A stretch of DNA of 6,296 nucleotides from a virus (taxonomy: Duplodnaviria > Heunggongvirae > Uroviricota > Caudoviricetes): IMG/VR virus record IMGVR_UViG_2663762839_000014. The stretch is one strand, 5' to 3'. The notes under the pieces were generated by a model that did not search any database, was not told the origin of the DNA, and saw only the letters and a list, made by a program, of their open reading frames with translations. Made by a program: the position numbers and the translations under genes. Shown here in pieces: positions 2,291-6,296 of the stretch. The first letter of the stretch is position 1; the number at the start of each line of letters is the position of its first letter.

Positions 2291-3868
2291 ATGACGGAAA
2301 ACATTCATAAGCATCGCATCCTCATTCTGGACTTCGGTTCTCAGTACACTCAACTGGTTGCGCGCCGCGTGCGTGAGCTGGGTGTTTACTGCGAACTGTG
2401 GGCGTGGGATGTGACAGAAGCACAAATTCGTGACTTCAATCCAAGCGGCATTATTCTTTCCGGCGGCCCGGAAAGTACTACTGAAGAAAACAGCCCGCGT
2501 GCGCCGCAGTATGTCTTTGAAGCAGGCGTACCGGTATTCGGCGTTTGCTATGGCATGCAGACCATGGCAATGCAGTTGGGCGGTCACGTTGAAGCCTCTA
2601 ACGAACGTGAATTTGGCTACGCGCAGGTTGAAGTCGTAAACGACAGCGCACTGGTTCGCGGTATCGAAGATGCGCTGACCGCAGACGGTAAACCGCTGCT
2701 CGATGTCTGGATGAGCCACGGCGATAAAGTTACCGCTATCCCGTCCGACTTCATCACCGTAGCCAGCACCGAAAGCTGCCCGTTTGCCATTATGGCTAAC
2801 GAAGAAAAACGCTTCTATGGCGTACAGTTCCACCCGGAAGTGACTCACACCCGCCAGGGTATGCGCATGCTGGAGCGTTTTGTGCGTGATATCTGCCAGT
2901 GTGAAGCCCTGTGGACGCCAGCGAAAATTATCGACGATGCTGTAGCTCGCATCCGCGAGCAGGTAGGCGACGATAAAGTCATCCTCGGCCTCTCTGGTGG
3001 TGTGGATTCCTCCGTAACCGCAATGCTGCTGCACCGCGCTATCGGTAAAAACCTGACTTGCGTATTCGTCGACAACGGCCTGCTGCGTCTCAACGAAGCA
3101 GAGCAGGTTCTGGATATGTTTGGCGATCACTTTGGTCTGAACATTGTTCACGTTCCGGCAGAAGATCGCTTCCTGTCAGCGCTGGCTGGCGAAAACGATC
3201 CGGAAGCAAAACGTAAAATCATCGGTCGCGTTTTCGTTGAAGTATTCGATGAAGAAGCGCTGAAACTGGAAGACGTGAAGTGGCTGGCACAGGGCACCAT
3301 CTACCCTGACGTTATCGAATCTGCGGCGTCTGCAACCGGTAAAGCACACGTCATCAAATCTCACCACAACGTGGGCGGCCTGCCGAAAGAGATGAAGATG
3401 GGCCTGGTTGAACCGCTGAAAGAGCTGTTCAAAGACGAAGTGCGTAAGATTGGTCTGGAGCTGGGCCTGCCATACGACATGCTCTACCGTCACCCGTTCC
3501 CGGGACCGGGCCTCGGCGTTCGTGTACTGGGCGAAGTGAAGAAAGAGTACTGTGACCTGCTGCGCCGTGCTGATGCCATCTTCATTGAAGAGCTGCGTAA
3601 AGCGGATCTGTACGACAAAGTCAGCCAGGCGTTCACTGTCTTCCTGCCGGTACGTTCTGTTGGCGTAATGGGCGATGGTCGTAAATACGACTGGGTTGTC
3701 TCTCTGCGTGCTGTCGAAACCATCGACTTCATGACCGCACACTGGGCGCACCTGCCGTACGATTTCCTCGGTCGCGTTTCCAACCGCATTATCAATGAAG
3801 TGAACGGTATTTCCCGCGTGGTGTATGACATCAGCGGCAAGCCGCCAGCTACCATTGAGTGGGAATGA
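2291..3868 (+). CDS. guaA: GMP synthase, glutamine-hydrolysing (525 aa)
   Basis: ORF 2291..3868 translates to [41 protein letters not shown]..., ending ...[10 protein letters not shown], matching E. coli GuaA. It contains the glutamine amidotransferase region (GVCYGMQ) and the ATP pyrophosphatase P-loop SGGVDSS. Confidence 0.97.
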
Positions 3869-4003: not shown

Positions 4004-4018
4004 TTACCTTAAAGGTAT
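4004..4018 (+). promoter_or_regulatory. Dyad motif copy a: TTACC-ttAAA-GGTAt, upstream of the integrase stub
   Basis: One of three same-orientation copies of TTACC-nnAAA-GGTA(A); the others are at 4960..4974 and 5340..5354. It lies about 45 bp upstream of the integrase GTG start and overlaps a TATACT -10-like hexamer at 4016..4021. Confidence 0.4.
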
Positions 4019-4060: not shown

Positions 4061-4210
4061 GTGCTTACCGATACAAAATTAAAAAACCTCAAGCCGCAGG
4101 ACAAACTGTACAAAGTCTCCGATCGTGACGGGCTGTATGTGGCTGTGCTTACGTCAGGTACGGTCTCGTTTCGCTATGACTACCGTATCAACGGTCGCCG
4201 CGAAACACTG
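4061..4210 (+). pseudogene. Tyrosine recombinase (P4-family integrase) N-terminal stub, about 50 codons
   Basis: From the GTG at 4061 the translation is LTDTKLKNLKPQDKLYKVSDRDGLYVAVLTSGTVSFRYDYRINGRRETL, the conserved N-terminal arm-binding region of P4-like integrases. After about codon 50 the frame continues as unrelated sequence to a stop at 4276, and no catalytic domain is present in any frame. Confidence 0.7.
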
Positions 4211-4690
4211 GTAGCCGGGCTTCAGCGGGGCACTGTAGGTTTTGTTCTCTATCTTCATTGCCTGCATCACTGCTGACGCCGTGGCGTTGGCTACTTGGTC
4301 GGCAACCATCTTTATGCGTTCTTCCTGCGGGAGCGAGTTTTTAATGTAACTTCCGGTGCGGCGGATCTGAGGAAGAACCTCACCTGTAACCCATTTACGA
4401 AAGCGGTAGGGGATAGTGCCTGGTGTTACTGCATCGCGGCAGCGGAGGATCAGTGTGTAGAGGCCTGACTCGGAGATGATGATCGATTCTTGCTCACCGC
4501 CAGGGGTGTCGGTTGAAGCGACGCCCTTCTCATCATCATCAAGTTTTCGAACAGTATCTCGATGGTTTGCTATGCCTATAGCCCGACAAACATCTGAAGC
4601 GATAAACCATGGCTCACCATTAATGACGATTACTCGTATATCGGCTTGGGATTCGAAAGAAAAAATGGACGTGCTTTTTGTAGCTGTCAT
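4154..4690 (-). CDS. Bro-N domain protein (phage antirepressor-like), 178 aa; C-terminal ~19 codons read antisense through the integrase stub
   Basis: Residues about 10-115 (FSFESQADIRVIVINGEPWFIASDVCRAIGIANHRDTVRKLDDDEKG...IISESGLYTLILRCRDAV...FRKWVTGEVLPQIRRTGSY) match the Bro-N signature. RBS AAGG lies 8 nt upstream of the ATG at 4690. Confidence 0.75.
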   Translation of the reverse strand: MTATKSTSIFSFESQADIRVIVINGEPWFIASDVCRAIGIANHRDTVRKLDDDEKGVASTDTPGGEQESIIISESGLYTLILRCRDAVTPGTIPYRFRKWVTGEVLPQIRRTGSYIKNSLPQEERIKMVADQVANATASAVMQAMKIENKTYSAPLKPGYQCFAATVDTVVIAKRDRT

Positions 4691-4723
4691 AGTGGTTACC
4701 TTTTAGTCTGGTTAATCACCACT

Positions 4724-4739
4724 ACCGACGCCAATCGGT
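4724..4739 (-). other. Stem-loop ACCGA-cgccaa-TCGGT (plus-strand reading), sharing its loop with the hairpin at 4887..4904
   Basis: 5-bp perfect stem with a 6-nt loop. The 10-mer GACGCCAATC (4727..4736) is repeated exactly at 4891..4900. Lies in the presumed leader of the Bro-N gene. Confidence 0.3.
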
Positions 4740-4847
4740 TGGTGGTGAACTGCGCAGGGTTGGCGTAACCGGCTAAAAGGACCCGGCGCACCTTTCGGTG
4801 CCCCCACACAGCCCACCATAATACGAATGTGACCGTGCTATACGCAT

Positions 4848-4867
4848 AAAAAAACCGCTTGCGCGGT
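4848..4867 (-). terminator. Rho-independent terminator on the minus strand
   Basis: On the minus strand, ACCGC-gcaa-GCGGU (5-bp stem, GNRA-type loop; plus 4854..4867) is followed by seven U (plus A-run 4848..4854). Positioned to terminate transcripts coming from the 85-codon ORF or the candidate small RNA. Confidence 0.6.
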
Positions 4868-4886
4868 GAATGCGCCTTTTAGTAAT

Positions 4887-4904
4887 CCGGGACGCCAATC
4901 CCGG
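4887..4904 (-). other. Stem-loop CCGGGA-cgccaa-TCCCGG (plus-strand reading), sharing its loop with the hairpin at 4724..4739
   Basis: 6-bp perfect stem with the identical CGCCAA loop. Lies inside the candidate small RNA. Confidence 0.3.
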
Positions 4905-4959
4905 CACTGGCAAAATCCAGTGCCCGATTACTATGGCACAAGAGGAGTGCGATGTAAAT

Positions 4960-4974
4960 TTACCGCAAAGGTAA
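4960..4974 (+). promoter_or_regulatory. Dyad motif copy b: TTACC-gcAAA-GGTAA, overlapping the -10/+1 of the putative minus-strand promoter
   Basis: Perfect 7-bp arms with flanks (ATTTACC / GGTAAAT, 4958..4976). Same core and orientation as the copies at 4004 and 5340. Confidence 0.4.
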
Positions 4975-5002
4975 ATATAAGCACTCCACTTGGTAATTGC
5001 AA
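4974..5002 (-). promoter_or_regulatory. Putative sigma70 promoter on the minus strand (TTGCAA - 17 bp - TATATT)
   Basis: -35 at 5002..4997 and -10 at 4979..4974 with a 17-bp spacer, starting directly after the stop codon of the 85-codon ORF. Hexamer match only; a chance occurrence in AT-rich DNA is possible. Confidence 0.3.
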
Positions 5003-5005
5003 ACC

Positions 5006-5263
5006 TTATATGGTTTGTTTTCGTAATTGTTCGGCACAATAGTCGAGATGTGTTTGCAGATCCTGCATAGACATCTGTGAGCTGGTGACGTAGTTAATCA
5101 GTGCAGTCAGTTCGGCAAGTGGGCCATCGACATTAAATCCATCCTTATCGAGATCCCGGAGTAATTTCATCAAGTGCGATCCCTCCACCAGTGACCTGAC
5201 GCCTCCCGGCGTGTGAATCCTTTCGGTAAATCCGTCTTCCAGTGGATAGTGATACTGCTGCAT
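5006..5263 (-). CDS. Hypothetical 85-aa acidic protein, predicted SOS (LexA)-regulated
   Basis: ORF with ATG at 5263, SD GGAG 8 nt upstream (plus 5272..5275), and a near-consensus LexA box 20-40 bp upstream of the ATG. No family recognised from the sequence MQQYHYPLEDGFTERIHTPGG... Coding status is inferred from the RBS and box context only. Confidence 0.5.
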   Translation of the reverse strand: MQQYHYPLEDGFTERIHTPGGVRSLVEGSHLMKLLRDLDKDGFNVDGPLAELTALINYVTSSQMSMQDLQTHLDYCAEQLRKQTI

Positions 5264-5282
5264 CTTATCTTCTCCATGTAAT

Positions 5283-5302
5283 AACTGTATATTTATACAG
5301 TA
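5283..5302. promoter_or_regulatory. LexA (SOS) box AACTGTATATTTATACAGTA
   Basis: CTGT-N8-ACAG with an A/T-rich spacer; 18 of 20 positions match the E. coli consensus TACTGTATATATATACAGTA. It lies in the divergent region between the 85-codon ORF (minus) and the tailspike gene (plus), and overlaps a TATAAA -10-like hexamer in the minus orientation. Confidence 0.75.
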
Positions 5303-5303
5303 T

Positions 5304-5318
5304 CAAACAATTTGTTTG
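5304..5318. promoter_or_regulatory. 15-bp palindrome CAAACAA-t-TTGTTTG adjacent to the LexA box
   Basis: Perfect 7-bp inverted arms around a single central base, immediately next to the SOS box and over the expected -35/spacer region of the minus-strand promoter. Candidate operator for a dimeric regulator. Confidence 0.3.
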
Positions 5319-5339
5319 CTATCCAGCACGTTTTGCGAA

Positions 5340-5354
5340 TTACCTGAAAGGTAA
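5340..5354 (+). promoter_or_regulatory. Dyad motif copy c: TTACC-tgAAA-GGTAA, in the divergent regulatory region
   Basis: Perfect 6-bp arms with flanks (ATTACC / GGTAAT, 5339..5355). Same core and orientation as the copies at 4004 and 4960. Confidence 0.4.
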
Positions 5355-5458
5355 TGTCTATTCGTGTTCACAGTATTTCTATACATATATGGTTTTTAGG
5401 GTAATAGAATAACCAGATGTGCGGCGCAACGGGTGCTGCGACTATCTGGAGATTTAAC

Positions 5459-6296
5459 ATGACGGTCTCAACCGAAATTGACCACAACGAATACACCGGT
5501 AACGGTGTTACAACGATATACCCTTATACCTTTAGGATTTTCCAGAAATCTGATTTAGTAGTGCAGGTTGTTGACCTGAACGAGAACATCACAGAGCTGA
5601 TTCTTGACACTGATTACATAGTTACTGGGCTGGAGGATACAATGGTGGCAATATAATTCTGTCGAAGGCATTGGTTAGCGGTTATCAGATTTCTATATCA
5701 CGAGAGCTTCCGGTTACGCAGGAAACTGATTTGCGTAATCAGGGTAAGTTCTTTGCAGAAGTGCATGAGGATGCTTTTGATAAGCTAACGATGCTGATCC
5801 AGCAGGTTCGAAGTTGGTTTAGCTTGGCGCTGCGCAAGCCGTCAAGTATTGCTAACTGGTACGATGCACTAAATAATTACATCCGTAATCTGAGAGACCC
5901 TAGAGAACCTCAAGATGCAGCCACGAAAAATTATGTTGATACTCTGGCTGTTGGAAATTTCATTCGAACATTACGTGTACCTGAACCTGTCAGGCAGTTC
6001 CCTGATGCAGCAATACGCGCCAACAAGATTCCTGCCTTCGACAGTTCCGGCAATCCGATTGTGGTTTTGCCTCCATCTGGTTCTGCTTCTGACATTATGA
6101 TAGAACTTGCTAAACCAACAGGTGCTGACCATATTGGTACATCATCAGGTGAAACTGTGCAGCATGTAATCGACCGACTTTATCTTCCAAATGATCCCCG
6201 TGGTTATGGCGCACTAACAGAGTCAACAGATAATACCCAAGCGTTCATTCAGGCGATTTATGCTTCACCTAGTGGAATTGTCATAAGGGGAGGTAT
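5459..6296 (+). pseudogene. Phage tailspike / tail-fibre protein, 5' part, interrupted by a -1 frameshift in a G-run at 5627..5629; continues beyond the window
   Basis: From ATG 5459 (SD GGAG 8 nt upstream) the frame reads MTVSTEIDHNEYTGNGVTTIYPYTFRIF...DYIVTG and stops at 5654. The adjacent frame is open from 5614 to the window end (over 225 codons: AGGYNGGNIILSKALVSGYQISISRELPVTQETDLRNQGKFF...). The two frames join if GGG at 5627..5629 was originally GGGG. The last part (PRGYGALTESTDNTQAFIQAI) resembles the start of a pectate-lyase-fold depolymerase domain. Could be a true pseudogene or a homopolymer sequencing error. Confidence 0.7.

Follow-up and report, generated by a model that had tools for sequence, protein, structure and literature searches.

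The viral DNA analysed here (the window, 6,296 nucleotides) carries at 4848-5002 an interval that most likely represents the IsrK element of an antisense-RNA immunity module of the P1 immI type, residing in a mostly deleted phiV10-like prophage. Judged by its sequence, the element at 4848-4923 is an IsrK-family RNA and the counterpart of a1/b1 of phage P1 and of seqA of P4. The evidence comprises family membership, anatomy, a three-way complementarity that co-varies among relatives, and the conservation of promoter, operator and terminator. A preliminary description of the interval as a candidate small RNA is partly supported. The structured non-coding unit that it proposed is confirmed, as the promoter-like site, the intrinsic terminator and the helices are all present in the sequence; it is no new candidate, as the element is Rfam isrK, a real but ordinary copy of a known, already described family. 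The features are listed below, with the site names a and b following the P1 convention (record NC_005856); homologues were compared across 17 related loci.

4154-4690, minus strand: Bro-N antirepressor gene, truncated (Pfam Bro-N, 6.1e-21; PHROG anti-repressor Ant)
4699-4706, minus strand: target b2, CUAAAAGG, spanning the Bro-N Shine-Dalgarno; same as b1, complementary to b'
4728-4734, minus strand: target a2, UUGGCGU, in the antirepressor leader; same as a1, complementary to a'
4738-4823, minus strand: C4 antisense RNA (Rfam RF01695, 75.7 bits against a gathering score of 45, E 5.5e-14)
4760-4766, minus strand: C4 a', ACGCCAA, in the junction of C4
4773-4780, minus strand: C4 b', CCUUUUAG, in the hairpin-2 loop of C4
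4848-4923, minus strand: IsrK core (Rfam RF01394), consisting of hairpin 1, hairpin 2, single-stranded b1 and intrinsic terminator
4848-4867, minus strand: intrinsic terminator ACCGC-GCAA-GCGGU followed by U7, from a sequence scan
4875-4882, minus strand: target copy b1, CUAAAAGG, in the single strand that links hairpin 2 to the terminator; complementary to C4 b'
4888-4903, minus strand: hairpin 2, CGGGA/UCCCG (stem 4899-4903 with 4888-4892), with a1 in its loop
4892-4898, minus strand: target copy a1, UUGGCGU, in the hairpin-2 loop; complementary to C4 a'
4904-4923, minus strand: hairpin 1, GCACUGG/AUUUUG/CCAGUGC (stem 4917-4923 with 4904-4910)
4926-4932 with 4881-4887, minus strand: outer 7-bp helix AGUAAUC/GAUUACU, from base pairing in the sequence
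4930-4958, minus strand: predicted proximal promoter TTTACA-17-(TG)CATAGT, predicted start near 4923
4960-4974, unstranded: putative operator dyad TTACC-GCAAA-GGTAA, between both promoters
4974-5002, minus strand: distal promoter-like site TTGCAA-17-TATATT, predicted start near 4967
5006-5263, minus strand: 85-aa gene under SOS control, encoding a small antirepressor of the type of SPC32H Ant (phrog_450; PDB 5D50 chain E, 'Anti-repressor protein', E 4.1e-47)
5285-5300, unstranded: LexA box CTGTATATTTATACAG ahead of the 85-aa gene, conserved in six Uetakevirus loci

The minus-strand sequence at 4848-4923 matches Rfam isrK with 60.0 bits (gathering score 50, E = 2.4e-11), and the match spans the full model (positions 1-77, window 4923 to 4848). 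The phages phiV10 and ZX5 score 76-78 bits on the same model, and the lower score of the window is due to an inverted loop in hairpin 1: it reads AUUUUG, whereas the eight closest loci have the reverse complement, CAAAAU, and all 16 other loci have an A-rich loop. The same inversion mainly explains why RF03163 (c4-a1b1) reaches 27.9 bits at 4884-4936, under its gathering score of 46.7, as compared with 43-44 bits in phiV10 and ZX5, 48.1 in Gifsy-1 and 51.0 in P1. The isrK match is followed, 24 nt away, by C4 and then by the Bro-N gene, both on the minus strand like isrK itself, and this tandem lies 5' of an antirepressor gene in 16 of the 17 loci, Gifsy-1 among them. The isrK and C4 Rfam profiles also detect relatives of P4 seqA and CI. 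The absence of a credible ORF, noted previously, holds: Pfam and PHROG give no match for the overlapping ORFs, which encode 88 aa on the minus strand and 58 and 34 aa on the plus strand, and NCBIfam gives none for any ORF of the region.

Covariation among homologues, which the preliminary description had named as a check on its proposal, is seen in hairpin 1, where five of the seven pairs have changed on both sides and 97.5% of the cells are paired. The stem of hairpin 2 is nearly invariant, with 95.3% of the cells paired. The terminator was found as described, at 4867 to 4848, and a G+C-rich terminal hairpin followed by a U-run is present in 16/17 loci, the fold being irregular in cdtI. Eleven distinct terminator stem strings were extracted, one of which is a 2-bp artefact (cdtI); the terminators were folded individually, as the columns of the MAFFT alignment (A1) were rejected for pair counts with the stems out of register. 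Fold prediction also bore out the structured character of the interval. The minimum-free-energy fold of 4848-4970 has -52.6 kcal/mol (z = -5.67, none of 200 shuffles as good) and contains the outer helix together with both hairpins, while the 76-nt core stands out less when folded by itself (z = -2.41, 4/200 shuffles as good). The nested arrangement proposed earlier, in which the outer helix encloses two stem-loops, is thus present in all its parts, but the inner hairpins of 8 bp and 6 bp shown there have bases in common and cannot both reach these lengths, and the outer helix, which overlaps the proximal -10, is paired in 68% of the cells and conserved only in the Uetakevirus-type clade.

The preliminary description had overlooked both C4 (4738-4823) and its actual targets at the ribosome-binding site of the Bro-N gene. 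The 3' end of C4 reads CACCACCA, in agreement with the family consensus. RNase P reportedly frees C4 from its precursor in P1 and P7, a result attributed to Hartmann et al. 1995. The exposed b' segment is complementary to the ribosome-binding region of the Bro-N gene, where an AAGG within b2 lies 8 nt ahead of the AUG (4690). As for a1 and b1 in P1, IsrK holds two short sites that are identical to a2 and b2 and complementary to the exposed C4 segments. Both segments match their own IsrK and their own antirepressor leader in 17/17 loci, over which 13 distinct C4 loops and 7 distinct junctions occur. The loop forms on average 8.4 contiguous pairs with its own IsrK and 8.8 with its own leader, and the junction 6.9 and 7.1, respectively; non-cognate combinations reach 4.9-5.8. 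Whole-RNA duplex energies of C4 with IsrK or with the leader showed no clear difference from shuffles (-57.7 kcal/mol against -50.9 ± 5.2, and -42.2 against -33.1 ± 4.9). As these energies fail to discriminate, the case is built on the short sites and the way they co-vary.

The host element is a decayed, mostly deleted phiV10-like (Uetakevirus) prophage behind guaA, with a P4-type integrase. Between 4210 and 5990, identity with phiV10 and ZX5, both Uetakevirus phages, is 93-97%, and the P4-type integrase belongs to phiV10 itself. The earlier suggestion of a P4-family element with RNA-based immunity therefore stands as to the immunity system, to which the locus belongs, and not as to the element, which is a phiV10-like prophage remnant and no P4 satellite. 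The IsrK-C4 region is matched in 556 of 5,426 complete E. coli genomes, and the segment at 5900-6296 has no near match among E. coli genomes.

The decay of this prophage makes it quite possible, if somewhat short of probable, that the interval is a relic devoid of present function, i.e., RNA genes that stayed behind when the prophage lost the repressor, the bulk of its genome and the 3' end of the antirepressor gene; they may be transcribed but would regulate nothing in this host. A deletion at ~4210-4213 joins the integrase fragment to the Bro-N gene, of which ~4213-4690 is native and the remainder comes from read-through onto the antisense strand of the integrase fragment. The Bro-N protein shares 98% identity with the antirepressor of ZX5 as far as residue ~161 of 231, where it is truncated, the tail fibre gene is frameshifted past residue ~57, the hairpin-1 loop is inverted, and the window holds no repressor gene. 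The deletion junction occurs in none of the 5,426 complete E. coli genomes, and an exact 37-nt search for the IsrK variant of the window found it in none of 185,579 species-representative genomes. Against loss of function, the promoters, the operator, both hairpin stems, a1, b1, the terminator and C4 are all intact, the truncated protein retains the entire Bro-N domain, and C4 and IsrK could act in trans on a related phage that shares a and b, such as phiV10 or ZX5. The truncated antirepressor, the inverted loop and the missing repressor gene all count against the reading as an immunity module, as does the P1 record, which annotates the role of a1/b1 as 'putative' only. On that reading, the copy in the window would be expressed and still act.

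A working module of the P1 immI type would operate from a single minus-strand transcription unit that contains IsrK, C4 and then the Bro-N leader and coding region. Transcription would start at two tandem promoters flanking the operator of the repressor (a Rep homologue), and further transcripts may enter from the LexA-controlled antirepressor gene upstream. Transcripts stopping at the intrinsic terminator would give the IsrK RNA (4923 to 4848, or ~4967 to 4848 from the second promoter), and read-through would yield C4 (4823 to 4738) followed by the leader and the antirepressor coding region. C4 would bind the leader with its junction segment a' on a2 and its hairpin-2 loop b' on b2, and this pairing is expected to block antirepressor translation because b2 covers the Shine-Dalgarno. 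Since IsrK has exact copies of both target sites, it may pair with C4 both in cis and in trans. Cis pairing within the read-through RNA would produce a translationally silent fold, and the predicted fold of the RNA from 4923 to 4685 does pair a1/b1 with a'/b' in cis, corresponding to the silent structure A of Gifsy-1. In trans, the short IsrK would displace or titrate the C4 segment so that the antirepressor is made. By analogy, Gifsy-1 supplies the evidence for the a1:a' pairing and for activation by the short IsrK, and P1 that for the repression of ant by C4.

In Gifsy-1, the a1:a' pairing was demonstrated with the compensatory mutants G28A/C162U and G31A/C159U, and anrP translation rose 139-fold when the short IsrK was provided in trans (Hershko-Shalev et al. 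2016, PMC4825925). Binding of IsrK to Hfq and the trans activation of antirepressor translation are known from Gifsy-1 only (Hershko-Shalev et al. 2016, PMC4825925). The mutated positions fall exactly in a1:a', where the pairing is identical in the window (a1 UUGGCGU, a' ACGCCAA). Gifsy-1 IsrK (RF01394) likewise has two 5' hairpins, a single-stranded stretch and a terminator, has its promoter at the position of the predicted proximal one, and is followed in the same order by C4 (STnc1160, overlapping 'orf45') and the antirepressor gene. The two loci differ in the b site (UCACCG in Gifsy-1, CUAAAAGG in the window), in the upstream neighbour (antQ as opposed to the LexA-controlled antirepressor gene), and in the second upstream promoter and Rep-type operator, which are predicted for the window; the window also has an inverted hairpin-1 loop, a truncated antirepressor and an orf45 frame that is uncoupled from the antirepressor start. 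The authors of the Gifsy-1 study explained activation via orf45, a small ORF overlapping C4 (PMC4825925). The equivalent frame in the window ends 22 nt ahead of the Bro-N AUG, so this coupling step is not conserved.

The likeness to P1 extends over the whole leader. In the P1 record, the order is operator, two promoters, a1, b1, C4, a2, b2 and gene, the same as in the window. Citron and Schuster are said to have described, in 1990, the immI leader of P1 and P7 as Oc4, P2c4/P1c4, a1, b1, C4 RNA, a2, b2, icd and ant. Both systems have tandem promoters, those of the window being predicted ones, with a repressor operator (40 bp apart in P1, 44 bp in the window), a1 in the second hairpin loop, b2 on a ribosome-binding site, and a hairpin with a U-run before C4. 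In contrast to P1, the window is without an icd-like gene, so that b2 covers the ribosome-binding site of the antirepressor itself; its antirepressor is of the Bro-N type, its operator is a Rep-type dyad rather than an asymmetric C1 site, and its terminator is stronger, P1 scoring only 35 bits on the isrK model.

The seqA-CI RNA-seqC arrangement of P4 is similar in that an antisense RNA processed from the leader is flanked by two copies of its target, and it suggests a different mode of action, in which C4 pairs with the nascent a1/b1 and alters termination at the IsrK terminator or downstream, IsrK serving mainly as a sensor and not as a trans decoy. This is consistent with the detection of P4 seqA and CI relatives by both profiles and with the 3' end of b1 lying just 7 nt from the terminator stem, and the Gifsy-1 authors raised the idea for STnc1160 (PMC4825925), which Rfam identifies here as C4. 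However, constitutive downstream RNA strengthened, rather than reduced, the IsrK effect in Gifsy-1 (PMC4825925), and the position of b2 on the ribosome-binding site points to translational control, making a termination loop unlikely. P4 uses premature termination to control its replication operon, whereas the module in the window would control an antirepressor, and it lies in a Uetakevirus prophage of which only the integrase is P4-type. A parallel to the decoy is provided by the prophage anti-sRNAs AgvB and AsxR of E. coli O157, which reportedly mimic the targets of host sRNAs (Tree et al. 2014). There too the short RNA reproduces an mRNA target site and thereby competes for a regulatory RNA, but sequence and structure are unrelated, and what IsrK imitates is the target of the RNA next to it on its own transcript.

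The proximal site TTTACA-17-CATAGT is predicted to be the family-wide promoter. In Salmonella, IsrK is a primary transcript with a sigma-70 promoter of its own immediately ahead of hairpin 1. Its -10 hexamer ends 6 nt ahead of hairpin 1 in 17/17 loci, its position equals that of Gifsy-1 PisrK (TTGACA-18-TATATT) and P1 P1c4/P51b, and the numbering of the Gifsy-1 mutants agrees with a start near 4923. The promoter named in the preliminary description, TTGCAA-17-TATATT, does lie at 5002 to 4974, directly after the stop codon of the 85-codon ORF (TAA, 5008-5006), but it appears to be an additional, clade-specific promoter 44 bp upstream, kept only in the Uetakevirus-type clade. Its equivalent is retained in Tyrion, a Klebsiella phage and EC.W1-9 despite diverged flanks, it resembles P1 P2c4/P51a in position, and Gifsy-1 has no equivalent. 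The dyad, which contacts the -10 and spans the +1 of this distal promoter, is very probably the operator of the phage repressor, a putative Rep homologue, in line with the repressor control suggested earlier. There are three copies in the window (0.09 expected) and 14 in phiV10 (0.58 expected), the latter all intergenic, including two in the stretch from rep (gp40) to the cro-like gene. In phiV10, gp40 is homologous to the Rep repressor of SPC32H (PDB 5D50_A, E 4e-42). Among relatives, the half-sites of the dyad are conserved and the centre is variable. An extended palindrome at 4944-4987 (GGAGUGC...GCACUCC) was considered as a terminator of the upstream gene and rejected, being without a U-run and missing in several relatives.

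A minus-strand terminator scan of 4600-5500 found only the IsrK terminator and none between the 85-aa gene and IsrK. As no terminator occurs from the stop codon (5006) to 4867, transcripts of the 85-aa gene must end at or pass the IsrK terminator, and the interval could be regarded as the mere 3' UTR and terminator of that LexA-controlled gene, with no RNA of its own. This is very unlikely: phages of the Epsilon15/SPC32H type carry the 85-aa gene without isrK, C4 and Bro-N, while the Gifsy-1, Stx, APSE and P1 elements carry isrK/C4 without the 85-aa gene, which makes the two separate modules, and the -10 hexamer keeps a fixed distance from hairpin 1 in every locus compared.

Most improbable is the earlier proposal of an independent, trans-acting ~120-nt sRNA that starts at TTGCAA-17-TATATT and targets mRNAs of host or phage through a CU-rich 5' segment, ACUCCUCUU, acting as an anti-Shine-Dalgarno seed, since, although the distal site is retained in three diverged relatives, the 123-nt RNA folds well and the family was originally found as an Hfq-bound RNA (according to its Rfam name), the CU-rich run is the -35/-10 spacer of the promoter common to all loci, a1 and b1 are the single-stranded segments that are conserved and match C4 and no ribosome-binding site, and the outer helix that frames the proposed RNA is poorly conserved. 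The run, at 4940-4948 rather than 4941-4949, reads CACTCCTC, CATAATTC or CATTTCCC in close relatives and is missing from other clades.

In phiV10-like phages, the lack of a terminator between the LexA-controlled gene and IsrK means that SOS induction could send transcripts through IsrK. A burst of a1/b1 decoys might then overcome C4 and release a second, RNA-gated antirepressor after the first, and the IsrK and C4 left in the remnant might work in trans on any phiV10-like phage that enters with identical a and b sequences. This extension is distinctly doubtful; if true, a prophage remnant would sway the choice between lysis and lysogeny of related phages.

The locus opens no new question of RNA biology, and its practical value lies in annotation. 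IsrK of Gifsy-1, a1/b1 of P1 and seqA of P4 represent a single element, and STnc1160, the stable RNA beside IsrK, is a C4 RNA, which brings the Gifsy-1 mechanism within the classical antisense immunity scheme. The IsrK-C4 pair is unannotated in phiV10, ZX5 and related prophages, and some records call ORFs over the C4 RNA gene, namely an 'ash family protein' in ZX5, phrog_20442 and orf45 in Gifsy-1.

An Rfam scan of the window returned adjacent minus-strand matches to isrK (RF01394; 4923..4848, 60.0 bits against a threshold of 50, E 2.4e-11, full length) and to the C4 antisense RNA (RF01695; 4823..4738, 75.7 bits against a threshold of 45), the window's two matches above curated Rfam thresholds. 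The c4-a1b1 family (RF03163) overlaps isrK at 4936..4884 with 27.9 bits, below its threshold. Since the isrK match exceeds its curated threshold, the structured small RNA of the preliminary description, whose promoter-like site, terminator and helices are all present, belongs to an already described family; C4, the functional partner of IsrK, lies just beyond the interval then delineated (4848-5002). The IsrK family and its connections with C4 and with P4 seqA/CI are already published or in databases (Rfam; the Gifsy-1 study, PMC4825925; APSE phage records; work on phage satellites), and in APSE phages both RNAs and the C4 sites ahead of the Bro-N gene are annotated. The window's own IsrK-C4 copy has no annotation so far, and neither do the related copies in phages of the phiV10 type and in prophages of E. 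coli. In the E. coli Z1323CEC0003 prophage locus (L019), the 315-bp gap at 1982-2296 holds IsrK and C4 and is featureless in the RefSeq annotation of intact prophages.

Features of the isrK-C4 locus, in window coordinates.
5002..4974, minus: distal promoter-like site, TTGCAA-17-TATATT
4960-4974: dyad TTACC-N5-GGTAA, between the two promoters
4958..4930, minus: predicted proximal promoter, TTTACA-17-CATAGT with an upstream TG
4926-4932/4881-4887, minus: outer helix, 7 bp, of the preliminary description
4917-4923/4904-4910, minus: hairpin 1 stem
4899-4903/4888-4892, minus: hairpin 2 stem
4892-4898, minus: a1, UUGGCGU, in the loop of IsrK hairpin 2
4875-4882, minus: b1, CUAAAAGG, single-stranded, 7 nt ahead of the terminator stem
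4867..4848, minus: terminator, ACCGC-GCAA-GCGGU + U7
4773-4780, minus: b', CCUUUUAG, loop of the second C4 hairpin
4760-4766, minus: a', ACGCCAA, C4 junction past the second hairpin
4728-4734, minus: a2, UUGGCGU, antirepressor leader
4699-4706, minus: b2, CUAAAAGG, antirepressor leader

The site names follow the P1 convention, taken from the annotated P1 record. The two segments a' and b' are exposed in C4; their complements occur twice each (a1 and a2; b1 and b2), and b2 includes AAGG, 8 nt upstream of the Bro-N AUG at 4690. As a1 equals a2 and b1 equals b2, IsrK duplicates each of the two sites in the antirepressor leader that C4 targets. Sixteen loci were added to the window: Gifsy-1, six Stx or other lambdoid phages, two Klebsiella phages, the Enterobacter phage Tyrion, two APSE phages from Hamiltonella and four E. 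coli phages. All 16 carry the isrK-C4 tandem ahead of an antirepressor gene, and the three-way complementarity is kept in 17 of 17 loci although their sequences differ, with 13 different b' loops and 7 different a' junctions. Across these 17, b' pairs with its cognate b1 and b2 over a mean of 8.4 and 8.8 contiguous positions and a' with a1 and a2 over 6.9 and 7.1, against 4.9-5.8 for non-cognate combinations. Protein genes have been called across the C4 gene, namely an 'ash family protein' in ZX5 (L002, 1779-1892), ORF57 in Nil2 and orf45 in Gifsy-1 (L003), and phrog_20442 matches the window's 35-aa frame over C4 (4696-4819, minus). In these cases an RNA gene was probably mistaken for a coding one; at best, the calls correspond to the poorly conserved orf45.

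In P1, synthesis of the Ant proteins is repressed by C4 RNA, and the P1 record lists a2 and b2 as sites for C4 repression of icd-ant translation; its entries for a1 and b1 are marked putative. In Gifsy-1, some isrK transcripts pass the terminator to give a silent mRNA in which the middle of IsrK is paired with a stretch ~130 nt downstream, and short IsrK supplied in trans raises antirepressor translation 139-fold (PMC4825925). The compensatory pairs of that silent fold, G28/C162 and G31/C159, are exactly a1:a', both sequences being identical in the window, and STnc1160, a stable RNA of the same study (PMC4825925), is C4 by Rfam. Folding of the window's read-through RNA likewise predicts a1/b1 paired with a'/b' in cis; this pairing is a prediction only, because the minimum-energy structure accounts for little of the ensemble. 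On the favoured reading, C4 blocks the Bro-N ribosome-binding site and IsrK is the matching decoy, retaining C4 in cis and vying for it in trans; the outcome would depend on how many transcripts terminate relative to those that read through. A P4-like alternative, in which C4 affects termination at the IsrK terminator, is possible. The orf45 coupling step proposed for Gifsy-1 is not conserved in the window, as the equivalent frame ends 22 nt ahead of the Bro-N AUG.

The three-helix shape proposed earlier was recovered on folding RNA 4970->4848 (-52.6 kcal/mol, z = -5.67 against dinucleotide shuffles); the 76-nt IsrK core by itself stands out less (z = -2.41). ORFs crossing the interval have no family match, in line with the earlier view that it holds no credible ORF. 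Over the 17 loci, hairpin 1 has 97.5% of cells paired and both-side changes at five of seven pairs; hairpin 2 is 95.3% paired with an almost invariant stem. The outer 7-bp helix is present in the window but is only 68% paired across the 17 loci, with its outermost pair broken in 9 of them, and its 5' strand is the -10 hexamer plus discriminator of the shared promoter. At the terminator, 16 of 17 loci fold into a terminal G+C-rich hairpin with a U-run behind it, cdtI being irregular. Hairpin 1 of the window (4904-4923, minus) is inverted as a 20-bp unit and reads GCACUGG-AUUUUG-CCAGUGC, versus GCACUGG-CAAAAU-CCAGUGC or near variants in the eight closest phage loci, phiV10 and ZX5 among them; the loop is A-rich in all 16 other loci. 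From its sequence, this looks like a loop flip via the stem's perfect inverted repeat. The inversion accounts for the lower Rfam scores of the window copy, at a cost of ~16 bits.

A -10 hexamer (CATAGT, TATATT, TATAGT or TACACT) ends 6 nt upstream of hairpin 1 in 17 of 17 loci; the Gifsy-1 counterpart of the proximal promoter is TTGACA-18-TATATT. The numbering of the Gifsy-1 mutants (C18, G28 and G31 in IsrK; A107, C159, C162 and G173 downstream) agrees with the Gifsy-1 sequence only when hairpin 1 begins at +1, which places the homologous predicted start in the window at ~4923. The promoter-like site assigned in the preliminary description, TTGCAA-17-TATATT, does lie just past the 85-codon ORF, which stops with TAA at 5008-5006, but the predicted promoter shared by the family is TTTACA-17-CATAGT, 44 bp downstream. 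No equivalent of the distal site is present in Gifsy-1; a similar one is kept in Tyrion, one Klebsiella phage and EC.W1-9 despite diverged flanks. It is probably a second promoter of the Uetakevirus-type clade. A comparable pair is found in P1, where P2c4/P51a and P1c4/P51b are spaced 40 bp apart and a C1 operator adjoins them. The CU-rich stretch once taken for a seed is the proximal-promoter spacer, lies at 4940-4948, one base from its reported position, and varies among relatives.

The dyad between the promoters has conserved half-sites and a variable centre among relatives. It occurs three times in the window (4004-4018, 4960-4974, 5340-5354; 0.09 expected) and 14 times in phiV10 (L018; 0.58 expected), confined to regulatory stretches between genes, a dispersal resembling that of the C1 operators of P1. 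Two phiV10 dyads lie between a divergent cro-like gene and the repressor gene gp40, whose product is homologous to Rep of SPC32H (PDB 5D50_A, E 4e-42). The dyad is probably the operator of a Rep-type repressor, through which Rep would shut both promoters. In phiV10 (L001, ~3258-3298) the operator at PisrK centres a perfect 18+5+18 palindrome, GGAGTGCTTATATTTACC-GCAAA-GGTAAATATAAGCACTCC (window counterpart 4944-4987), whose 5-nt centre has the opposite orientation in the window, ZX5 and phiv142-3; one Klebsiella phage keeps the outer arms with other sequence (ATGGGTT/AACCCAT).

Salmonella phage SPC32H encodes a close homologue of the upstream 85-aa ORF (5006-5263, minus), the small antirepressor Ant (PDB 5D50 chain E, E 4.1e-47), and the structure of Ant in complex with its repressor has been solved (PDB 5D50). 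The locus therefore has two successive antirepressor genes, one LexA-gated and one C4-RNA-gated. The LexA box of the 85-aa gene (5285-5300) is conserved in six Uetakevirus loci, and a review counts the SPC32H-type small antirepressor among LexA-controlled antirepressors. No terminator of this SOS-controlled gene was found ahead of IsrK; the gene may feed transcripts into IsrK and thereby couple the RNA switch to LexA cleavage. One Salmonella phage of the epsilon15 kind carries the 85-aa gene only, with no isrK-C4. Klebsiella phage ST512-KPC3phi13.3 (L013) has two adjacent annotated CDS of 85-86 codons (1281-1538 and 1629-1889) versus a single gene in other phages, perhaps the result of a tandem duplication.

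Across 4210-5990 the window shares 93-97% identity with temperate podoviruses of the genus Uetakevirus (phiV10, vB_EcoP_ZX5 and O157 typing phages), and the P4-type integrase, which had suggested a P4-family island, is the phiV10 integrase. In those phages the tail fibre gene occupies one strand and the 85-aa gene, an unannotated gap and the Bro-N antirepressor gene the other. The window is a remnant: it has guaA followed by the first ~50 codons of a phiV10-type integrase, which a deletion junction at ~4210-4213 fuses to the 3' portion of Bro-N (4061-4213 / 4154-4690), with a loss of roughly 31-34 kb of prophage DNA. Intact prophages with the same integrase lie behind guaA in 568 complete E. 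coli genomes; the junction was found in 0 of 5,426, and 5900-6296 has no near match among complete E. coli genomes. The Bro-N product matches the ZX5 protein at 98% identity as far as ~residue 161 of 231, beyond which the two diverge, and the tail fibre gene (5459-6296) is frameshifted past ~residue 57. The module itself is intact in sequence (promoters, operator, stems, a1, b1, terminator, C4); the controlled Bro-N gene is truncated, and the window contains no repressor gene. The IsrK-C4 element of the window may be a relic; action in trans on related phages would still be possible.
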